A stretch of 64,000 bases of DNA from Candidatus Omnitrophota bacterium (GTDB lineage Bacteria; Omnitrophota; Omnitrophia; Omnitrophales; Aquincolibacteriaceae). A program made the translations under genes and the position numbers. The number at the start of each line of letters is the position of its first letter. Positions within the stretch are counted from its first letter, which is position 1. The notes beneath the pieces are model-generated. The model searched no databases and had not been told where the DNA came from. It saw nothing but the letters and a program-made list of their open reading frames with translations. The DNA lies in NCBI GenBank assembly GCA_022711115.1, contig JAKLFP010000003.1, positions 201,199 to 265,198 of the forward strand. Direction: 5' to 3'. This document shows positions 1,140 to 10,888 of this stretch, piece after piece.

Positions 1140-1442
1140 ATGTCAAAACCTTTGATTGATCCTAAAATACTTCAAACTGCCGCAAAGATCCTTCGAGCAC
1201 TGGCGCATCCTTTGCGTCTGCGTATCATTGAAAAGCTAAAAAAAAGGAAATATTCCGTCGGGGAACTGGTCACCGCTTTGGACTTGCCTCAAGCGGTTGT
1301 CTCAAAACATTTGGCGCTTCTTAAAAACACGGGGATCTTAACCAGTAAAACAGACTGCAATTTCCGCTACTATTCGATCGCCAACAGTAAGGTCCTTGAC
1401 GTCCTGAGCTGCATCCAAAAAAGCTGTTCTAAGGAGAATTGA
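1140..1442 (+). CDS. ArsR/SmtB family transcriptional regulator
   Basis: A winged-HTH pattern LAHPLRLRIIEKL...YSVGELVTALDLPQAVVSKHLALLKNTGIL is present. The listed ORF starts at TTG 1125, but the first ATG at 1140 is more plausible. The stop overlaps the next gene's start (ATGA at 1439-1442). Confidence 0.8.
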   Translation: MSKPLIDPKILQTAAKILRALAHPLRLRIIEKLKKRKYSVGELVTALDLPQAVVSKHLALLKNTGILTSKTDCNFRYYSIANSKVLDVLSCIQKSCSKEN

Positions 1443-3898
1443 CCATGCGCATTTTAATCGTAGGAGGAGTGGCAGGAGGCGCCTCCGCGGCCGCCCGCGC
1501 GAGACGCTTATCGGAAGATGCCGAGATCATTATCTTCGAGCGGGGCGACTACGTTTCTTTCGCTAATTGCGGGCTTCCTTATCATATCGGGGGCGTCATC
1601 AAAGACCGCGAACGATTGATCGTCCAAAGCCCGAACAGCATGCGAAAAAATTTCAGGATCGATGTGCGAACCGGAACGGAAGTCCTCAAGATCGACCCAG
1701 TCAAAAAGCTCATTGTTACCAAGGAACTTTCGACAGGAACCGAACGTAAAGAACCTTATGATTTCTTGATCCTGAGCCCCGGCGCGGAACCGGCGCGTCC
1801 TCCCCTGCCAGGCATTAATTCCAGAAAAATCATGACCCTGCGAAGCTTGAATGACATGGACGCGATCAAAAAAGCCATCGATACGGATCGTCCCGAACGA
1901 GTCTTGATCCTCGGTGGCGGCTACATCGGACTGGAAATGGCGGAGGCCCTCAGAGAACGGCAGGTCAACGTGACGCTTGTCGAACTCATGAACCAGGTCA
2001 TGGGGCCCACGGACCCTGAAATGGCGGCACCCCTTCATCAAGAACTTACCCTTCACGGCGTGGATCTCCGGCTGGGGACCTCGGTCAAAGGTTTCCGTGA
2101 AGAAAAAAATATTCTTTACGCCGACCTCAGCACCGGAGAATCCCTGGCTTTCGGTTTGGCTGTCCTTGCCGTTGGCGTTAAACCGGAAACCCGCCTTGCG
2201 CGTGACGCGGGGCTGAAACTCGGAACACGCGGAGGTATTTCGGTTGACGCAGGCATGCGAACCAGCGACCCGTTCATTTACGCGGTAGGCGACGCTGTGG
2301 AGGTGAAAGATCTCGTCACAAACGAACCCTCTCTCATCCCCCTTGCCGGTCCCGCGAACCGGCAAGGACGGATCGCCGCGGATAATATTTTCGGCAGGAA
2401 CTCGACATACAAAGACACTCAAGGTACGGCGATCTGCAAAGTCTTCGGCCTTACGATCGGCATGACCGGAACAAACGAGAAAAACCTGAAGCGGCTGAAG
2501 GTCCCTTATGAAAAAATCTATATTCATGCCGCATCCCACGCAAGCTATTACCCCGGCGCGTCACCCATTAATTTAAAATTGATCTTCGATCCCAAAACAG
2601 GAAAAATCCTCGGGGCTCAAGCTGTCGGACCGGACGGGGTGGACAAGCGGATCGATGTGATCGCGGTAGCTCTGCGTGCCGGGCTGACAGTCTATGATCT
2701 TGAGGACATGGAGCTTTCTTACGCCCCGCCCTACGGCTCGGCAAAAGACCCTGTCAATTACGCCGGATTTGTCGCGGCAAATGTTCTCCGCAAAGACGTG
2801 CTTGTCTGCCACGCGGAAGACGCCTTGCATCCCAGAAAAGACCAGCAGCTTTTGGATGTCCGTACTTCCGCTGAAATCACTTCCGGCATGATCCCGGGCG
2901 CGATCCATGTCCCTCTCGACCAACTTCGGGAAAGATTGCCGGAACTTTCAAAAGATAAAGAATACCTCCCCTACTGTAAAGTCGGCCTGCGCGGCTATCT
3001 TGCCTGCCGGATCCTTTCCCAGCACGGGTTCAAATGCCGCAACCTGACCGGAGGTTATGACACTTATCAGGCAAGCCTCGGGCTTGCGGTGAAGCGACCG
3101 GTCATAAAAGACATGAGAGACGACACCGGAGCTCACGGATTCCTTGCGACAAACGAAAATCCTCACACTTCGCTTGTCAAAGAAATTGACGCATGCGGCC
3201 TGCAATGCCCAGGCCCGATCCTGCGCATCAAAACCGAGATCTCAAAGATCCAGACCGGAGAAGCTCTCCGGATCTCCGCCACGGATCCCGGGTTCGTCAC
3301 TGACATTCAGGCGTGGTGCAAAAGCACGGGGCATCAATTGCTTGAATTGAAGCCCGTTTCGGGAAAATACCAAGCCACGATCGTCAAACAGCAACCGGGA
3401 GATCCCAAGGAAACCTCCATGGATTATTCCAAAAAGAAAACCATAGTAGTCTTTAGTTCGGATTTTGATAAAGTGATGGCCGCGTTCGTCATCGCCAACG
3501 GGGCGTTGGCCATGGAAAGTGACGTAACGATGTTTTTTACTTTTTGGGGGTTGAACGTCCTGCGAAAACCCAGCCCCGGGCGCGTAAGCAAAAACTTGAT
3601 TGAAAAAATGTTCGGTTTCATGATGCCTCGCGGCGCCGACAAACTTTCCCTTTCCAAAATGAACATGGGCGGCATGGGACTTCAGATGATCAAGGGCATC
3701 ATGAAGAAAAAGAACGTCGCTTCCCTGCGCGAATTGATCGCCAGCGCCCAAGCTTCGGGCGTCCGGTTTGTCGCTTGCTCCATGTCTATGGACTTGATGG
3801 GGATCAAGAAAGAAGAATTAATCGACGGCGTCGAGACTGGCGGCGTCGCCATGTATCTTGATAACGCCCAGCAAGGCAATGTGAATCTTTTCATTTAA
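1439..3898 (+). CDS. multidomain sulfur-trafficking oxidoreductase: CoA-disulfide reductase-like FAD/NAD(P) pyridine nucleotide-disulfide oxidoreductase + rhodanese + TusA-like + DsrE/DsrF-like
   Basis: The N-terminus has the FAD-binding motif ILIVGGVAGGASAA and the redox-active SFANCGLPY. The middle has a rhodanese segment (QQLLDVRTSAEI...CKVGLRGY). This is followed by a TusA CPGP motif (CGLQCPGPILRIK) and a DsrE-like C-terminus (TIVVFSSDFDKVMAAFVIANGA). The protein is 819 aa. Confidence 0.8.
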   Translation: MTMRILIVGGVAGGASAAARARRLSEDAEIIIFERGDYVSFANCGLPYHIGGVIKDRERLIVQSPNSMRKNFRIDVRTGTEVLKIDPVKKLIVTKELSTGTERKEPYDFLILSPGAEPARPPLPGINSRKIMTLRSLNDMDAIKKAIDTDRPERVLILGGGYIGLEMAEALRERQVNVTLVELMNQVMGPTDPEMAAPLHQELTLHGVDLRLGTSVKGFREEKNILYADLSTGESLAFGLAVLAVGVKPETRLARDAGLKLGTRGGISVDAGMRTSDPFIYAVGDAVEVKDLVTNEPSLIPLAGPANRQGRIAADNIFGRNSTYKDTQGTAICKVFGLTIGMTGTNEKNLKRLKVPYEKIYIHAASHASYYPGASPINLKLIFDPKTGKILGAQAVGPDGVDKRIDVIAVALRAGLTVYDLEDMELSYAPPYGSAKDPVNYAGFVAANVLRKDVLVCHAEDALHPRKDQQLLDVRTSAEITSGMIPGAIHVPLDQLRERLPELSKDKEYLPYCKVGLRGYLACRILSQHGFKCRNLTGGYDTYQASLGLAVKRPVIKDMRDDTGAHGFLATNENPHTSLVKEIDACGLQCPGPILRIKTEISKIQTGEALRISATDPGFVTDIQAWCKSTGHQLLELKPVSGKYQATIVKQQPGDPKETSMDYSKKKTIVVFSSDFDKVMAAFVIANGALAMESDVTMFFTFWGLNVLRKPSPGRVSKNLIEKMFGFMMPRGADKLSLSKMNMGGMGLQMIKGIMKKKNVASLRELIASAQASGVRFVACSMSMDLMGIKKEELIDGVETGGVAMYLDNAQQGNVNLFI

Positions 3899-3930
3899 CC
3901 AACGTTTTCAACTACACATAAAGGAGATTT

Positions 3931-4722
3931 TTGATGAAAAATAAGAATATCATCGCATCGCTCTTAACCGTGATGTGCCTGGTTTCGGGCCTGGCTTTTC
4001 CCGTATACGCGGAAGAAACTGCGGCCACGCATCTTCCGCTGATCGGAGATGACGCCCCGGCTTTTACGGCCAAAACAACTCAAGGGACGATCAATTTTCC
4101 GGAGGATTATAAAGGGAAATGGATCATCCTCTTCAGCCATCCCGCGGACTTCACGCCGGTCTGTACGACGGAATTTATGACGTTCGCAACTATGCAGCTG
4201 GAATTCGAAAAACTCAACACGCAACTTGTCGGTCTTTCCATCGACAGCGGTTACAGCCATATCGCATGGCTCCGGACCATCAAAGAGAAAGTCGAATTTA
4301 AAGACATGAAAAATGTCGAAGTGACTTTCCCGTTAATTGAAGATATTAAAATGGATGTGGCTAAAAAGTACGGCATGCTCCAACCCACGGCAAGCACCAC
4401 GCAGGCTGTACGCGCTGTCTTTTTTATCGACCCGGCAGGAAAGATCCGGGCGATCCTTTATTATCCGCTCTCTAACGGACGCAATTTCGACGAGATCAAG
4501 CGGCTTCTGATCGCGATGCAAACCTCAGACGCTTACAAGATCGCCACCCCCGCCAACTGGCAGCCGGGCGACGACGTGATCGTCCCTCCCGCAGGTTCGT
4601 GCGGAACGGCGAAGGAACGCATGGAAAAATCCGGGCAGGGTGAACTGGACTGCAAGGACTGGTTCATGTGTTTCAAAAAGCTGTCCAAGGAGCAAGTCGA
4701 AGAAGGGCTTAAAAAGAAATAA
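3931..4722 (+). CDS. secreted 1-Cys peroxiredoxin (Prx6-like) with N-terminal signal peptide
   Basis: The signal peptide is MMKNKNIIASLLTVMCLVSGLAFPVYA. The peroxidatic motif is FTPVCTTE. A consensus RBS AAGGAG lies at 3921-3926. Confidence 0.8.
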   Translation: MMKNKNIIASLLTVMCLVSGLAFPVYAEETAATHLPLIGDDAPAFTAKTTQGTINFPEDYKGKWIILFSHPADFTPVCTTEFMTFATMQLEFEKLNTQLVGLSIDSGYSHIAWLRTIKEKVEFKDMKNVEVTFPLIEDIKMDVAKKYGMLQPTASTTQAVRAVFFIDPAGKIRAILYYPLSNGRNFDEIKRLLIAMQTSDAYKIATPANWQPGDDVIVPPAGSCGTAKERMEKSGQGELDCKDWFMCFKKLSKEQVEEGLKKK

Positions 4723-4754
4723 AGCAGACTTTCTTCAGCCTGCTTCATTGACAA

Positions 4755-4786
4755 GGGACGGTTCTCAAAAAAACCGTCCCTTTTTT
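4755..4786 (+). terminator. rho-independent terminator after the peroxiredoxin gene
   Basis: A 9-bp stem gggacggtt/aaccgtccc (4755-4763 and 4772-4780) has an 8-nt loop and is followed by the T6 tract 4781-4786. Confidence 0.6.
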
Positions 4787-4803
4787 CTTGCCATCCCCTC
4801 ACC

Positions 4804-4847
4804 TTGACAAAAAATCCTTGGAAGGATATTATTAGCATATGCTAATA
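4804..4847 (+). promoter_or_regulatory. sigma70-like promoter (-35 TTGACA 4804-4809, 17-nt spacer, -10 TATTAT 4827-4832) overlapped by a perfect 18-bp palindromic operator (tattagcatatgctaata, 4830-4847)
   Basis: This was read directly from the sequence. The palindrome is perfectly self-complementary, overlaps the -10 hexamer and the predicted transcription start, and lies 17 bp upstream of the DUF134 start codon (4864). Confidence 0.5.
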
Positions 4848-4863
4848 ACTAAACGGAAAACTC

Positions 4864-5238
4864 ATGCCTCGCCCTTTTAAATGCCGCCGCGTTTCAGGAA
4901 CCCCGGGCTCGCAATATTTCAAACCAAGGGGCATCCCGCTCCTTGACCTTGAAGAAGTCGACCTGACGCTCGACGAGTTCGAAGCGATCCGGCTCGCGGA
5001 CCTGGAGGATTTCTATCAGGAAAACGCCGCAAAAAAGATGGGCATCTCAAGACAAACATTCGGAAACATTATCGCCGGCGCACATAAAAAAATTGCCGAC
5101 GCCCTTGTGAACGGCAAGGCCCTGAAGATCTCAGAGAGCGCTTTCGCGAAAACAGCGGGACGGTCGTGTTTCCGCCACCGTAAAAAGTGCGGGCAAAACA
5201 AACTTCTTAGGGCAAAAACTGATGGAATCCACGCATGA
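4864..5238 (+). CDS. DUF134/UPF0251 family putative DNA-binding protein
   Basis: The N-terminal MPRPFKCRRV signature and a sigma-70 region-4-like HTH (MGISRQTFGNIIAGAHKKIA) are present. The stop overlaps the next start (ATGA). Confidence 0.7.
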   Translation: MPRPFKCRRVSGTPGSQYFKPRGIPLLDLEEVDLTLDEFEAIRLADLEDFYQENAAKKMGISRQTFGNIIAGAHKKIADALVNGKALKISESAFAKTAGRSCFRHRKKCGQNKLLRAKTDGIHA

Positions 5239-5417
5239 TCAGGATCGAAGAGACGCTATGCGATGGCTGCGGCATTTGCAAAGAGATCTGTCCCGTAGAC
5301 GGTGTCAGGGTCATCAACGGCAAAGCTGTTGCCAATTTGAAATGCATGGACTGCGGGACTTGCATAAGCTCTTGCCCTCCCCAGGCAATTTCCGCGAACA
5401 AGGTTGAAGCATCATGA
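5235..5417 (+). CDS. 2x[4Fe-4S] ferredoxin
   Basis: Two cysteine clusters are present, CDGCGICKEICP and CMDCGTCISSCP. The protein is 60 aa and is ATGA-coupled on both sides. Confidence 0.8.
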   Translation: MIRIEETLCDGCGICKEICPVDGVRVINGKAVANLKCMDCGTCISSCPPQAISANKVEAS

Positions 5418-6013
5418 GCCACGATTCGGTTATTCTTTCTCTTTATAAGCGAATCCGGTTATTCAGAAAATATGGCTATGATCTTCCCGCATCGAGAAAG
5501 TACCTTTTGGAAAAGTGCATCCCCTTTGTCGGGAAAGTCCTGGAAATCGGCAGCGGCAAGGGACATTTCACGGCTTGTTTGGCAAAAAAGCGTTTTAAAA
5601 TCATTTCCGTGGATCTGGATCCTGATGCATTGAGGATCTCAAAAAAACATCTCACCGCGTTAAAACTATCAAAACAGGTCCTGTTCCGAAAAATCAACGC
5701 GGAAAAACTCCCCTTCCCTTCCCGGAGTTTTAACCAGGTCGTTTCAATAGACTTTTTCCATCACGCGAAGAATCCCTTTCGGTGTCTTCGCGAAATGATG
5801 CGTGTCACGCAAAAAAATTTACTGATCGCGGACCTGAACAAAAAAGGCATGCGGGTCATGGACCGCGTCCACCAACTCGAAGGGAAAAAACATGAATCCA
5901 GCCGAATCTCATTCAAGGCTTTGAAACGGCACCTTGAGAGAAACGGATTCCTTGTCAAAAGCTACCGTCACAACTGTCATCAGATCTTTCAAGCTCAAAG
6001 GAGGGACTTATGA
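5414..6013 (+). CDS. class I SAM-dependent methyltransferase
   Basis: SAM-binding motif I VLEIGSGKGHF is followed by an acidic loop VDLD. Confidence 0.7.
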   Translation: MSHDSVILSLYKRIRLFRKYGYDLPASRKYLLEKCIPFVGKVLEIGSGKGHFTACLAKKRFKIISVDLDPDALRISKKHLTALKLSKQVLFRKINAEKLPFPSRSFNQVVSIDFFHHAKNPFRCLREMMRVTQKNLLIADLNKKGMRVMDRVHQLEGKKHESSRISFKALKRHLERNGFLVKSYRHNCHQIFQAQRRDL

Positions 6014-6375
6014 GAATCTGCATTCCAACCACCACCCGAGAAGGGAAATCCGCCCGTGTTCACGAACATTTCGGAAGCGCCCCTTTCTTCACGATATGGG
6101 ATAAGGAAAAAGACGTCATGGAGATCATCGATAATGCCAATCAGCACCACAGCCACGGCATGTGCCATCCCATGACGTCACTGGCAGAAAAGAGGATTGA
6201 TGCTGTGGTCACAGGCGGCATGGGCGCTCGTGCCGTCCAAAAACTGAACGAGGGAGGCATCAGGGCCTATCGGGCCGTTCCCGGAACCGTCGATAATACC
6301 TTGAAGCAATTTTCATATGGCGGACTTCAGGAACTGACCATTGAGAACGCCTGCGCTCAGCACGGCTGCCATTAA
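6010..6375 (+). CDS. NifX/NifB-like dinitrogenase FeMo-cofactor-binding domain protein
   Basis: MRICIPTT...HFGSAPFFTIWD...AVVTGGMGARA is typical of the NifX/NafY/NifB C-terminal (DUF269-like) family. The protein is 121 aa. Confidence 0.7.
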   Translation: MRICIPTTTREGKSARVHEHFGSAPFFTIWDKEKDVMEIIDNANQHHSHGMCHPMTSLAEKRIDAVVTGGMGARAVQKLNEGGIRAYRAVPGTVDNTLKQFSYGGLQELTIENACAQHGCH

Positions 6376-6387
6376 ACATTCCGGTTT

Positions 6388-6855
6388 ATGCGGCAAGCCC
6401 AAGAAAAGCTTAAATCCTTACAAAAACTCTTTCATTCCGCCTGCGTAGTTTGCGGAAGAAAAAATCCTCAGGGCATGAAATTGCCTTTTCAGACTTGTAA
6501 GGATGGTTCGGTCAAGGCGCGATTCTTTTGCGACCGACTCTTACAAGGCTATCCGGGTTTGATACACGGGGGCATGACTGCGGCGATCCTTGACGGGGCC
6601 ATGATGAACTGCCTTTTTGCCCACGGCCGCATCGCCGTCACGGGAGCTCTTGCGGTACGTTTTTTGTCTCCTCTTGCCGTAGAACGAACGGTCACCGTCC
6701 GAGCACGGATCAAAAAATCGATCTCCATGTGGCATATCCTGGAATCCGAACTCCGGCAGGGCAAGCGAATCCTCGCGAAAGGAACCGCCAAATTCATGGA
6801 ATGTACCGAATATTTCTTTAAACAACATGAAAGGACGCGCGAAGAAAGAAAATGA
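6388..6855 (+). CDS. PaaI/4HBT hotdog-fold thioesterase
   Basis: The pattern GLIHGGMTAAILDGAMMN is typical of PaaI-type thioesterases. An N-terminal CxxC (CVVCG) is also present. Confidence 0.65.
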   Translation: MRQAQEKLKSLQKLFHSACVVCGRKNPQGMKLPFQTCKDGSVKARFFCDRLLQGYPGLIHGGMTAAILDGAMMNCLFAHGRIAVTGALAVRFLSPLAVERTVTVRARIKKSISMWHILESELRQGKRILAKGTAKFMECTEYFFKQHERTREERK

Positions 6856-7034
6856 ATCCTTGGATCCGGTTTCTCGCTTTGGTCTGCGAACGATGTCCCC
6901 TGTGCGCGATGGCCAGACGTTTTCCGAAATCTTCATTTGCCCAGCATATGAAACGCATAGAAAAATTCTGCCCTTTTTGTTTGGCTCACGAAAAATCAAA
7001 ACAGCATGATGGAAACAGCAAAAGCTTATTCTAA
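6852..7034 (+). CDS. small Cys-rich (CxxCxxC...CxxC) zinc-ribbon-like protein, possible sixth gene of the DUF134 operon
   Basis: The start overlaps the thioesterase stop by ATGA, the same coupling pattern seen upstream. The motifs are CERCPLC and CPFC. The protein is 60 aa, and coding is uncertain. Confidence 0.3.
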   Translation: MNPWIRFLALVCERCPLCAMARRFPKSSFAQHMKRIEKFCPFCLAHEKSKQHDGNSKSLF

Positions 7035-7055
7035 ATGGAAATTTGAAGAACCGTT

Positions 7056-7994
7056 TTAGGTCAGGAGGGCAAAGCTGAAAATCCCGGACGTGGTCTGGAC
7101 CTTGTTGCTTCCGAAAACATCCTGTTGAACACCGAGCTCAAGGCGAAAATGATCGCCAAACGGCATGATGAATCCGAGAACAACGCTGGCGAGGTTCGCC
7201 GTGGCCCCGTGCCCGCCGAAATCATGAAGATAAATGAACTCGGCCTCGGGCTGCAGCCAAGATAAAACTTGATATCCCACCGCGAAATTCGAATGGGCGG
7301 TCCCGTAATAGTGCCCCGTCCGCTCCCAATGCGCGAGCGGTGAATTAAATCCGAGATTGATTGTTCCGTTCCAGCGGCCGATGTCCTTGGTAAACGCGAA
7401 CGAATTGTCCAGACTTGTATACCCCTGGCTCGCGCCGATATGATCCAGATTGCTGCGCCGGCCCGTCGGAACAAATATCGTCGGCATGTACGCGATCTCC
7501 AACCTTTTCTCCGCGGAATCATAGAACCGCCAGCGCCCCGCGATCCCAAGATCTCCCCATCCAAACCCGTGGGTTGGGCCTTCGGTTTCATCTTCCATAG
7601 AAGAACCCGTGTCCGGATCCATCATGTCCCTGAATTCGTTGTAATTATTGTTCTTATCCAAGGTGTGCTGGTACCACTGAATAATCCCGATATCGACCCC
7701 TTCATAAAGACCGATCGTCACCTGCGAATCAAAAGTTTGAGTTAAATAAGTCCCGCGTTTTTCTCGACTCCCGTTCGATTTCCATGCGAATTTCCCTCCC
7801 TGCAATGAATAGGAACTCCAGATTTCCACTTGCCCCGGATCATTGGTTGTCGCATCACTCGTCACGACCTTGGAATGTTCTTCGATCACAATATTCTCAG
7901 CCGCGTGCGTGGCGTAAACCGGGATCTGCCCGAGACAAAGCAAAAGAGTCAGCGTTATCGAAAGTTTGGAAACATTGACGCCCGATGATATCAT
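7056..7994 (-). CDS. outer-membrane beta-barrel protein (MetA-pathway/phenol-degradation-like transporter family), signal peptide
   Basis: The likely start is MISSGVNVSKLSITLTLLLCLGQIPVYA, an internal Met of ORF 7056..8042. The C-terminal pattern GIFSFALLT and aromatic-rich alternating segments support a beta-barrel. Confidence 0.45.
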   Translation of the reverse strand: MISSGVNVSKLSITLTLLLCLGQIPVYATHAAENIVIEEHSKVVTSDATTNDPGQVEIWSSYSLQGGKFAWKSNGSREKRGTYLTQTFDSQVTIGLYEGVDIGIIQWYQHTLDKNNNYNEFRDMMDPDTGSSMEDETEGPTHGFGWGDLGIAGRWRFYDSAEKRLEIAYMPTIFVPTGRRSNLDHIGASQGYTSLDNSFAFTKDIGRWNGTINLGFNSPLAHWERTGHYYGTAHSNFAVGYQVLSWLQPEAEFIYLHDFGGHGATANLASVVLGFIMPFGDHFRLELGVQQDVFGSNKVQTTSGIFSFALLT

Positions 7995-8170: not shown

Positions 8171-10159
8171 TTACTCGAACCCCAAAAGTTTACCGCCCTG
8201 GTAGACCACAAAAGAACTCGTCCACGCGAGTCCCGTCATGTACGCGATCATGAAAATCATCCATCCCCAAGAACTTGTTTCGCGTTTCACGACCGCGAAG
8301 GTTGAAAAACACTGACAGGCCAGCACATAAAATATCATAAGCGACAATCCCACCAACGGCGTATAAAGCGGTTGCCCGGTCTCCAGGGACTTGGCCTGCT
8401 GAAGAGCATGAATCAACCCTGTGGCAGATCCCTCGCCTTCCGTACGCACATGATGCACAATCGCCAGTGTACTGATCAGAAGTTCTCGCGCCGCAAAAGA
8501 AGCGATGATCCCGATCCCGATCTCCCAGTTGAATCCAAGCGGACGAATCACCGGTTCAATAATTTTTCCGAGGCGCCCGGCATAACTCGAAACAAGTTTT
8601 TGATTTTTTTCTTCATGTTCAAGAATGTCCAACCGTTCGGCCAGGGCCTCTCCCTGAAAAACAGCCGCCACTTGCTGCCGCTCATCGTAAAACTTTTTTT
8701 CGACGCTGGGGTCCTTGGGATAACTCATTAAAAACCACAAAATAATCGAGAACAGAAAAATAATACTCCCTGCCCTGTAAATGAACTCTTTGCTCCGGTC
8801 CCACATTGTCGCCAGAATCGTTTTAAAATGCGGGAAACGGTAAGGCGGTAATTCAAACACAAAAGGCATCCGGTTCCCTTTCAGGAAGGTCTTCCTGAAA
8901 AGAGCGGCCATGCCAAGCCCCGCTCCGATGCTCAGACCATACATGCCGAGCAGCGTAAAACCCTGAAGAGAGAGAACGTTGAGCAGCATGATATTCGGAA
9001 TGAACGCGGCGATCAGCAGCGTGTAAATCGGCAGTCTCGCGCTGCAACTCATGAGCGGTGCGACAAGGATTGTGGCAAGGCGGTCATTACGGTCTTCGAT
9101 CGTCCGTGTCGCCAGCACTCCGGGGACCGTGCACGCAAACGAGCTTAAAAGCGGCAAAAATGCCTTGCCGTTTAATCCTACCGCTTTCATGATACGATCC
9201 AGAACAAACACCGCGCGGGCCATATACCCCGTATCTTCAAAGAAGGCTATAAAAAAAAACAAAAGAAAGATCTGGGGCAAAAAAACAACCACATTCCCCA
9301 CACCTCCGATGACTCCGTCCACCACAAGGCTTTGGAGCGCTCCGGCGGGCAACAACTCCTTGGCCCCATGCGCCGCATATTCCACCCCGTGGGAGATCCA
9401 TTCCATAGGAATTTGCGCCCATGAGAAAATCGACTGAAAAATGAACGCCATGACTCCGAGGAAGGTCAAAATCCCCCAAAACCGGTGCGTCAAAACTTTG
9501 TCGAGTTTTTCAGACCCTGTGAACTCTTTTTTCGGGACCCATCGCAAAACTTTTCCCAAGACTGCTTCGATCCTCTGGTAGCGGACCTCGGGAGCCAAGT
9601 CAGGTTGAAACGTGTTTTCTTTTTCAGCCGCAACCGTCTTGTTCAATTCTTGTTCGATAACTTCTTTCAACTTCCGAATATTTTCACGTCTCATGCCCAC
9701 CGTAAAAACACACGGCACTTTGAGCTGCGCGCTCAACTGTTCCAGATCGATTTCCGCTCCGTTCTCTTTGGCCATATCCCACATATTCAATGTCAGCACC
9801 ACAGGAAGACCCAACTCGATTACCTGGGTCGCGAGATAAAGGTTCCGTTCGAGATTGTTGGCATCGATCACCACAACGACGAGATCCGGAAGCGGCGTGT
9901 CTTTCTGCTTTCCAAACAAAACATTTTGAACGACTTCTTCGTCAAGAGAACGCGGGATCAGGCTGTAAGCCCCAGGAAGATCCAATACTGCTATTTCTTC
10001 ACCGCTGGAAAGGGTCATTTGCCCGACACGTTTTTCCACGGTCACACCCGGATAATTGGCCGTACTATGGCGGAGCCCTGTCAACGCGTTGAAGATCGTA
10101 GTCTTCCCGGTATTGGGATTTCCGACAAGCGCAATCTCCCTTTTCTTATTGGTCTTCAT
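8171..10159 (-). CDS. feoB: ferrous iron transport protein B
   Basis: The G-domain has the P-loop GNPNTGKTT plus DLPG and TLNMWD motifs, followed by a large polytopic membrane domain. The start was chosen at MKTNKKREIALVGNPNTGKT. Confidence 0.9.
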   Translation of the reverse strand: MKTNKKREIALVGNPNTGKTTIFNALTGLRHSTANYPGVTVEKRVGQMTLSSGEEIAVLDLPGAYSLIPRSLDEEVVQNVLFGKQKDTPLPDLVVVVIDANNLERNLYLATQVIELGLPVVLTLNMWDMAKENGAEIDLEQLSAQLKVPCVFTVGMRRENIRKLKEVIEQELNKTVAAEKENTFQPDLAPEVRYQRIEAVLGKVLRWVPKKEFTGSEKLDKVLTHRFWGILTFLGVMAFIFQSIFSWAQIPMEWISHGVEYAAHGAKELLPAGALQSLVVDGVIGGVGNVVVFLPQIFLLFFFIAFFEDTGYMARAVFVLDRIMKAVGLNGKAFLPLLSSFACTVPGVLATRTIEDRNDRLATILVAPLMSCSARLPIYTLLIAAFIPNIMLLNVLSLQGFTLLGMYGLSIGAGLGMAALFRKTFLKGNRMPFVFELPPYRFPHFKTILATMWDRSKEFIYRAGSIIFLFSIILWFLMSYPKDPSVEKKFYDERQQVAAVFQGEALAERLDILEHEEKNQKLVSSYAGRLGKIIEPVIRPLGFNWEIGIGIIASFAARELLISTLAIVHHVRTEGEGSATGLIHALQQAKSLETGQPLYTPLVGLSLMIFYVLACQCFSTFAVVKRETSSWGWMIFMIAYMTGLAWTSSFVVYQGGKLLGFE

Positions 10160-10472
10160 GCCCCCCTCGATGGCGATGCTGTCTCCTGCGTTCGCAGCAA
10201 GAATCTTCGCCGTTCCTTTCCGTGTCTTTTTCGACAAGAATGCACTTCGCATCCTGCTTTCGTATAGACAAATAATAACCACGGATCCTCAGCTCCATGG
10301 GATCGGCCAGAGGCGCGCATCGCCGAACCTTGATCCATGTGCCTGGAACAAGCCCCAGCTCTTTCAGACGATAATGAAGATCCTGAGTTTCCGTAAATCC
10401 CCGGATCACACCGCTTTCTCCGGGTAATAGTCGGTCCAGGGTCGTAAGCTTTAAGTCCGGCATTTGGTGCAA
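10146..10472 (-). CDS. feoA: ferrous iron transport protein A
   Basis: An SH3-like FeoA pattern is present (LPGESGVIRGF...LKELGLVPGTWIKV). It overlaps the feoB start in a different frame. Confidence 0.7.
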   Translation of the reverse strand: MHQMPDLKLTTLDRLLPGESGVIRGFTETQDLHYRLKELGLVPGTWIKVRRCAPLADPMELRIRGYYLSIRKQDAKCILVEKDTERNGEDSCCERRRQHRHRGGHEDQ

Positions 10473-10888
10473 AGCCCCACAAGCTGGTGACAGTGAAATT
10501 CAACTTTAAATTCGAACCGCTCAGCGATCTTTTTCTGAAGTTTCTCAATGATCGGATCGCTGAACTCAACAACTTTGCTGCAAGTCCGGCAATAAAGATG
10601 ATCATGATGTTTCTTTTGATTCGCTGCCTCATAATAAGTGTCACGACTCGTTTTAAAACTCTGCTCGATCACTCCGGCCTCAAGAAGGATCGGAATGTTG
10701 CGGTAGATCGTATCGCGGGAAACACGGAGTCCTTGTTTTCCCAACCGGCGGACAAGCTCATCCACGTTAAAATGCCCGCGCTGTCGGCTGACGCCCTCAA
10801 GGAGTCTGAGACGCTCTTCCGTCACACGGAGATTTTTCTTTCGAAGAAAAGTATGGAATCGATCGTTTTTTACCGCCTGCATAAACAT
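10451..10888 (-). CDS. fur: Fur family transcriptional regulator
   Basis: A winged HTH (RVTEERLRLLEGV) and the metal-binding motifs HHDHLYCRTC...HCHQLVGLCTKC are present. It lies immediately upstream of feoAB. Confidence 0.85.
   Translation of the reverse strand: MFMQAVKNDRFHTFLRKKNLRVTEERLRLLEGVSRQRGHFNVDELVRRLGKQGLRVSRDTIYRNIPILLEAGVIEQSFKTSRDTYYEAANQKKHHDHLYCRTCSKVVEFSDPIIEKLQKKIAERFEFKVEFHCHQLVGLCTKCRT

Follow-up and report, generated by a model that had tools for sequence, protein, structure and literature searches.

The locus described here raises the question of what recognises the perfect palindrome that lies across the promoter of a DUF134 gene, and to what effect. It is part of a 64-kb stretch of DNA that was analysed as a whole and is referred to below as the window. 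Judged from its sequence, the arrangement appears to be that of a classical repressor and its operator, here in a large family without a previously reported function or site. The DUF134/UPF0251 family (3,661 clusters at 90% identity were found) is spread over many anaerobic phyla and over conjugative plasmids of Klebsiella, Citrobacter and E. coli, and the NCBI naming of its members is still ‘hypothetical’ or ‘DUF134 domain-containing protein’. In the full-text literature outside subscription journals, we found no functional study of DUF134, UPF0251 or COG1342 and no mention of the palindrome motif; the statement in a preliminary description of this DNA that DUF134 has no defined binding site agrees with the searchable literature and with the NCBIfam name (‘hypothetical protein’). 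We consider it very probable that the DUF134 protein is an autorepressor of its own five-gene operon and acts through the palindrome at 4829-4848.

Promoter, palindrome and operon in the window

The features of the window needed for the argument are the following:

1125-1442, ArsR gene
1439-3898, gene for an 819-aa CoA-disulfide-reductase/rhodanese-type protein, paired with ArsR
3931-4722, 1-Cys peroxiredoxin gene, the upstream neighbour
4753-4782, plus strand, intrinsic terminator of the peroxiredoxin gene (11-bp stem with 6 GC pairs, then a T-run)
4804-4809, plus strand, -35 hexamer TTGACA (from the sequence, the promoter scan and the profile of related promoters)
4827-4832, plus strand, -10 hexamer TATTAT, the last four bases of which are the outer part of the left operator arm
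4829-4848, symmetric and without strand, candidate operator, perfect 20-bp palindrome (from its perfect arms, conservation, specificity and covariation)
4839-4840, plus strand, transcription start predicted from the promoter geometry, about 7 nt past the -10 hexamer and at the palindrome centre
4864-5238, plus strand, DUF134 (UPF0251) gene, 124 aa, proposed repressor (from the PF02001 match and the fold)
5235-5417, plus strand, 2x[4Fe-4S] ferredoxin, 60 aa, start overlapping the DUF134 stop (ATGA)
5414-6013, plus strand, SAM-dependent methyltransferase, 199 aa, overlapping the preceding stop codon
6010-6375, plus strand, NifX-like/Nitro_FeMo-Co (IPR003731) cluster-binding protein, 121 aa (PF02579)
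6388-6855, plus strand, hotdog-fold (4HBT/PaaI-type) thioesterase, 155 aa, at the end of the putative operon
8171-10888, minus strand, fur-feoA-feoB, with fur itself at 10451-10888, 6 kb from the DUF134 site

The terminator at 4753-4782, which is kept in the closest relatives, ends the upstream unit, and the DUF134 promoter therefore opens a new one. This promoter (TTGACA, a 17-nt spacer and TATTAT) matches the consensus at 11 of 12 positions and is one of just two promoter-like sites found by the consensus scan in 3500-7500, in line with the strong, near-consensus promoter of the preliminary description. The same description had the palindrome overlap both the -10 hexamer and the predicted start, as it does, spanning approximately -10 to +10. 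Its length had been given as 18 bp; the sequence concerned (tattagcatatgctaata, 4830-4847) is self-complementary, but the true extent is 20 bp (4829-4848), made up of two 10-nt arms, TTATTAGCAT and ATGCTAATAA, which according to the repeat finder are 100% complementary and have no spacer between them. The element includes GCATATGC outside the -10 hexamer, and the DUF134 ATG at 4864 lies 16 nt past it.

Within the 64-kb window this is the longest perfect palindrome and the sole one with arms of at least 8 nt. The window holds no second copy of the 18-mer at up to three mismatches (0.01 expected), no further palindrome copies or half-sites and, when scanned with the DUF134 position weight matrix, no other site of 12 bits or more upstream of any gene. 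No regulon larger than the operon emerges from the window. A first-order Markov model gives an expectation of 0.075 palindromes of 20 bp per window, and 15 of 200 simulations contained one; in isolation the palindrome is only mildly improbable, and its significance rests on comparative data.

Other symmetric or structured elements were also noted in the window. A 9-nt inverted repeat (AAAATCCTT/AAGGATATT) occupies 4811-4830 in the promoter spacer; it was considered as a second site and rejected, since it is lost even in relatives with a 94% identical DUF134, and is probably due to chance. An Rfam scan of 4600-5000 gave no family at the gathering score, the best match being PyrR on the opposite strand (27 bits vs 54), mostly over the upstream terminator. 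On the minus strand, fur-feoA-feoB has a near-consensus promoter, in which TTGACA (10944-10939) and TACAAT (10921-10916) are 17 nt apart; directly after the -10 hexamer comes a 23-bp palindrome, TTATTAAGA-CTCAA-TCTTAATAA (10913-10891), which reaches the ribosome-binding site. The palindrome is probably a Fur autoregulation box and is clearly unlike the DUF134 operator.

The stop and start codons of the five ORFs in 4864-6855 overlap or nearly abut. In the closest relatives, three Logan contigs with a 94% identical DUF134, the gene order is that of the window; their promoter spacer differs from it at five positions, while the operator differs solely at the position that is variable throughout the family. 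One further locus (L007, 104-1015) lacks the ferredoxin gene of the window, and its DUF134 ORF continues into the methyltransferase to give 303 aa, through a genuine fusion or through a frameshift in the sequencing.

Conservation and specificity of the site

We compared 80 loci from metagenomes and another 80 from GTDB species genomes, with DUF134 proteins 52-84% identical to that of the window. They represent at least 12 phyla, with lineages including Omnitrophota, Planctomycetota, Syntrophales/Smithella, Elusimicrobia, Acidobacteriota/Aminicenantes, Spirochaetota, Nitrospirota/Thermodesulfovibrionales, Lentisphaerota, Clostridia, Bacteroidota, Chlorobiaceae, Margulisiibacteriota and others. 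The upstream regions of DUF134 orthologues were where the preliminary description had proposed to look for the palindrome, and far from being absent there, a site of at least 18 bits was found within 1.5 kb upstream of 147 of the 148 non-redundant DUF134 genes, in 141 of them within 200 nt of the ATG. The remaining gene (L103) has its site 1.9 kb upstream, at the operon head. The 110 nt before the start codons show TTGACA, an unconserved spacer and then TATTATTRGCATATGCYAATAA, and the family consensus of the operator is TTATTRGCATATGCYAATAA, with the half-site TTATTRGCAT. Profiles calculated from 47 and 33 unique related promoters (types A and B, respectively, described below) have an information content of approximately 2 bits per position at the -35 hexamer and across the 20-22 bp of the site, and of approximately zero in the spacer and flanks.

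As a measure of specificity independent of any matrix, the window's own 20-mer was searched with up to three mismatches across 937,524 bases of related loci. It gave 150 matches, 143 of which fall in the 3.5% of the sequence that lies within 200 nt upstream of DUF134 starts. Six of the seven outlying matches are at operon heads where a gene for a DsrE-like or TrmO-like partner precedes DUF134, and the seventh (L146) stands before a gene for an Mrp/NBP35-type ATPase. On these comparisons, the palindrome is most likely the conserved DNA target of the DUF134 family.

The seventh match is a second full-strength operator (TTATTGGCATATGCTAATAA, 1539-1560 of L146), 2.4 kb upstream of DUF134, and the ATPase gene that it fronts (1676-2521) is of the Fe-S carrier type; it is the only clear regulon member outside the DUF134 operon among the loci fetched. 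Two sites at one operon head, with DUF134 not the first gene, were seen in L154 (3440-3496) and L157 (2592-2613 and 3499-3520). The cores of these sites carry one mismatch (GCTTATGC, GCATTTGC), and the L154 pair is arranged in tandem, 35 bp apart.

The site is kept at 48-52% protein identity in enterobacterial IncF plasmids, Salinivibrio and Acetoanaerobium, where the core reads GCATATGCCA or GCAAATGCCA, precedes the DUF134 or the NifX gene and is often in tandem. When PLSDB was searched by tblastn, 198 plasmid records had DUF134 genes (approximately 48-52% identity); most were conjugative and of the IncF type, from Klebsiella, Citrobacter, E. coli and Enterobacter. These genes are annotated just as ‘DUF134 domain-containing protein’ and are followed by a ‘NifB/NifX family molybdenum-iron cluster-binding protein’. 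The promoter on E. coli pKTa005_1 has ATTATTGGCATATGCCAC and a second, weaker copy, that of the Klebsiella plasmid has two tandem copies (TATATTGCATATGCCAG and TATATAGCATATGCCAATAA), and that of Acetoanaerobium consists of TTGACA, 17 nt and TAAAAT, followed by TAATTAGCAAATGCCAATAA. On the Salinivibrio megaplasmid (L165, 4053-4102), tandem strong sites (AGTTTGCATATGCCATAAAT, ATTTTGGCATATGCCATTTAT) lie between DUF134 and the NifX-family gene, which would have its own operator-controlled promoter. The gene order DUF134-NifX-PaaI is shared by the Salinivibrio and Klebsiella plasmids. Among the fusion proteins at 42-49% identity, one (L167) is associated with a recognisable palindrome resembling type B that keeps the ATG half-site signature, whereas of those with altered helices one (L170) has a degenerate site and the other (L168) nothing clear.

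The E. coli and Klebsiella IncF plasmids (L164, 3443-3492; L172, 3940-3995) carry DUF134-NifX(-PaaI thioesterase-Dps) with one or two operator-like sites, and the Klebsiella module adjoins an ArsR/SmtB regulator and an FAD-dependent oxidoreductase, similar to the ArsR pairing in the window. A search of 5,426 complete E. coli genomes found the L164 variant in just one.

The DUF134 protein and its proposed mode of action

The window protein matches PF02001 over residues 3-89 with 83.6 bits (cut-off 27) and, in part, the NCBIfam model PRK04217 ‘hypothetical protein’ (57 bits vs a cut-off of 115). In alignments of 17 and 67 sequences that include it, the N-terminal MPRPxKCR...YFKPRGIP and the helix SRQTFGNI are invariant or nearly so. 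An AlphaFold2 monomer model built on the 67-sequence alignment has pLDDT values above 90 for residues 31-90, the only confident part, in which a strand, three helices (36-47, 52-59 and 63-83) and a final strand are predicted, the helix-turn-helix (HTH) comprising 52-59 and 63-83. A search of the PDB with the window sequence detected no relative, and no structure of the family is deposited. With Foldseek the best matches of the model were region 4 of ECF sigma factors (SigR, SigD, SigC, SigE), the DNA-binding domain of DeoR and GerE, superposing with an rmsd of 0.5-1 Å over 40-50 residues at a probability of 1.00; the E-values are only 0.01-0.3, modest because the domain is small. The model and these matches confirm the sigma-70 region-4-like HTH that had been predicted for the first downstream gene.

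Protein and DNA are connected by residue 68, which falls within the first turns of helix 63-83, the predicted recognition helix (SRQTFG-N/R-II), and the mutual information of which is the highest of any alignment column. Where position 5 of the half-site is T (108 loci), 107 of the 108 proteins have Asn68; where it is G (39 loci), Arg68 is found without exception. The preferred contacts of these residues are, respectively, with adenine and with guanine. A protein with Ile68 (L080/L136) is accompanied by a unique operator variant, TTGTCAT, Asn68 is kept in all plasmid, Salinivibrio and Acetoanaerobium proteins, and the L167 fusion, with its type-B-like site, has Arg68. It should be noted that on a neighbour-joining tree calculated with this column masked, the Asn/Arg pattern needs only about two changes, so that the covariation would amount to one or two coupled events rather than 147 independent ones, and could reflect shared ancestry. 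That the operator base tracks a residue of the predicted recognition helix suggests that DUF134 itself, and not another regulator, is the binder.

Long-form DUF134 proteins (P0086, P0107, P0120 and those of many loci) have a C-terminal CxxC...CPxC segment resembling a zinc ribbon, together with a Gly/Arg-rich tail ending in Cys (...GGGRGRGRCRR); DUF5320, a frequent neighbour, is likewise Gly/Arg-rich. The tail of the window protein (residues 95-124) is basic, contains two Cys and exceeds that of the 94% identical relatives by 25 residues.

We propose that DUF134 would bind as a dimer, which is assumed from the symmetry of the site, with one sigma-region-4-like HTH on each 10-bp half-site, and that Asn68 at the start of the recognition helix would read the base pair at half-site position 5. 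With both the -10 hexamer and the predicted transcription start under the site, the bound protein should exclude RNA polymerase from the near-consensus sigma-70 promoter, with the effect that DUF134, the ferredoxin, the methyltransferase, the NifX-like protein and the thioesterase would all be repressed.

The placement of the site relative to the promoter falls into two types. In type A (approximately 86 loci, the window included) the site lies over -10/+1, its centre 35-37 nt past the first base of the -35 hexamer; the left arm provides the -10 hexamer, and the right one reaches to approximately +10. In type B (approximately 40 loci, most of them from Syntrophales, with others from Acidobacteriota, Spirochaetota and Nitrospirota) this distance is 18-19 nt, and the site fills the 17-nt spacer, with the right arm supplying TATAAT. 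Both placements are typical of repression and are predicted to occlude RNA polymerase, and the occurrence of one sequence in two promoter positions means that it is conserved as a site and not merely as a promoter.

These geometries bear on the possibility that DUF134 does bind the site but acts as an activator, a dual regulator, a nucleoid-type or an anti-sigma-like factor, for which its sigma region 4 fold and the type B position between -35 and -10, the one used by MerR-type activators, might be cited. MerR-type activation depends on a 19-20-nt spacer, however, and the DUF134 promoters do not have it; they are near-consensus with an optimal 17-nt spacer and so need no activator, and a type A site over -10 to approximately +10 is incompatible with activation. 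We therefore regard these modes of action as unlikely.

A different regulator, of the Fur or ArsR family encoded nearby or a global one, might instead occupy the operator, DUF134 being then merely one of the genes regulated. The window does encode both Fur (10451-10888, minus strand) and ArsR (1125-1442), the outer arms of the operator (TTATTA...TAATAA) resemble the AT-rich arms of the fur-promoter palindrome, and orp-type clusters in Desulfovibrio vulgaris are under another regulator, OrpR (PMC8359166, PMC3897727), which illustrates that other regulators exist. Against this, DUF134 is the only gene invariably found beside the site across at least 12 phyla and plasmids, no other gene of the window has a site upstream at 12 bits, and the operator base covaries with a DUF134 residue. 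Fur as the binder was rejected, as its own promoter carries a different palindrome, TTATTAAGA-N5-TCTTAATAA, with another core and another spacing. A regulator other than DUF134 appears to us quite improbable.

The least credible reading, to which we give hardly any weight, is that the element is a DNA or RNA structure (a cruciform, a 5'-UTR hairpin or an attenuator), a conserved extended promoter or a chance palindrome: perfect palindromes can fold, the -10 hexamer forms part of this one and chance produced a 20-bp palindrome in approximately 7% of simulated windows, but its presence in 147 of 148 loci excludes chance, conservation runs 16 bp past the -10 hexamer, type B uses the identical sequence at another promoter position, no Rfam family reached threshold, and the mRNA, predicted to start at the palindrome centre, would contain just one arm. 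A hairpin or cruciform was moreover rejected on account of the sole variable core position, R at -4 and Y at +4, which varies mostly asymmetrically, so that base-pairing between the arms is not under selection. Among 72 unique sites the R/Y combinations are A..C in 21 (a non-complementary pair), G..T in 30, G..C in 11 and A..T in 8, perfect symmetry as in the window being the minority state; this pattern argues for a degenerate protein contact and against a structural constraint.

Partner genes, possible signal and known systems

Autorepression by DUF134 would have to be relieved by a signal, and the gene surroundings offer some indications of its nature. The constant partner of DUF134 is the NifX-like gene, which lies downstream on the same strand within 3.5 kb in 88 of the 112 loci with enough sequence; relatives of the methyltransferase are downstream in 19 of the 112. 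At least 25 distinct protein clusters, with 42-100% identity to the query fusion, combine DUF134 and the NifX-like domain in one chain. The downstream counts were made by reference-based tblastn; clustering merged DUF134, NifX and methyltransferase through the fusion proteins. The window NifX-like protein also has a partial match, far below cut-off, to the C-terminal domain of MrpORP. Other genes repeatedly found near DUF134 encode MinD/ParA-type ATPases with ferredoxin inserts, DUF5320, TrmO-N-like, MBL-fold, C_GCAxxG_C_C and DsrE-like proteins, PaaI/4HBT thioesterases, SAM methyltransferases and PAS-sigma-54 activators. Next to the module, the window and some relatives have sulfur-handling genes, such as those for rhodanese, DsrE, ArsR paired with a reductase (FAD-dependent or of the CoA-disulfide type) and a Cys/Met PLP enzyme.

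Domains of the NifX type (IPR003731) bind complex Fe-S species (PMC5524996). From the NifX-like partner and the sulfur-handling neighbours, our guess is that the signal has to do with Fe-S, sulfide or thiometallate status, with the NifX-like protein as the sensing module. Relief of repression might then depend on the state of an iron-sulfur, sulfide or metal-cluster pool, for which the sensor would be the NifX-like partner or, as another guess, the conserved Cys-containing N- and C-terminal segments of DUF134. A more specific suggestion, which we put forward tentatively and consider possible rather than probable, is that DUF134 and the NifX-like protein are a split one-component sensor, fused in some organisms, in which the NifX-like domain binds an Fe-S, thiometallate or sulfide-derived cluster and controls DUF134 at TTATTRGCATATGCYAATAA. 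If true, this would be a very widespread and previously unrecognised cluster- or sulfide-responsive transcription switch, with orp-type and Fe-S carrier genes of anaerobes and of enterobacterial plasmids under its control. Whatever the signal, the candidate operator, the predicted specificity residue and the predicted mode of action make DUF134 a directly testable transcription factor, for which the plasmid-borne homologues provide a genetically tractable system. The site may also give a handle on the poorly understood NifX-like and orp-type clusters, as finding what derepresses the DUF134 promoter should show the purpose of their proteins.

The orp (orange protein complex) cluster of D. vulgaris Hildenborough is activated by the Fe-S redox sensor OrpR together with sigma-54 and IHF; found specifically in anaerobes, it still has no clear function (PMC8359166, PMC3897727, PMC6345978). 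Several of its protein families recur near DUF134 in related loci, namely NifX-like proteins (Orp5/Orp8-like), MinD-type ATPases with two [4Fe-4S] motifs (Orp3/Orp4-like), the Mrp/NBP35 ATPase (Orp9/MrpORP-like) and PAS-containing sigma-54 activators (OrpR-like). Orp7 (DVU2107) we take to be a DUF134 protein. The only orp member in the window operon is the NifX-like protein (Orp5/Orp8-type), without the MinD-type ATPases (Orp3/4) and the Mrp/NBP35 protein (Orp9), and the window promoter is of the sigma-70 type with the DUF134 palindrome, whereas that of orp is of the sigma-54 type with an OrpR site (GGGCGYRTTTTGCGCCC).

A second parallel is IssA, an Fe-S storage protein with a cationic, Gly-rich tail containing a single Cys, the expression of which responds to sulfide and iron (PMC5524996). 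IssA shares an IPR003731-type domain with the window NifX-like protein (6010-6375), in which a Cys/His-rich C-terminus (ENACAQHGCH) takes the place of the Gly-rich tail. The Gly/Arg-rich, Cys-containing tails of the long-form DUF134 proteins and of their DUF5320 partners do resemble that of IssA.

As for the DNA-binding domain, the three-helix core of the DUF134 model superposes on sigma-70/ECF region 4 and on the LuxR-GerE HTH, with SRQTFGN aligned with the start of the recognition helix, although no sequence similarity to any solved structure is detectable. Unlike sigma factors, DUF134 is without regions 2 or 3, and while sigma region 4 targets a single -35 hexamer, the candidate target of DUF134 is a palindrome, implying a dimer.

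A further comparison is with the classical autoregulated HTH repressors (LexA, TetR, Fur and B. subtilis DeoR). DUF134 differs from these families in being a sigma-region-4-like domain of approximately 95 residues without a recognisable ligand-binding domain, and in its conserved, basic and Cys-containing N-terminal segment (MPRPxKCRR...YFKPRGIP). It resembles them in the symmetric operator that overlaps the promoter, in the position of the regulator gene at the head of the operon and in the tandem sites seen in some relatives.
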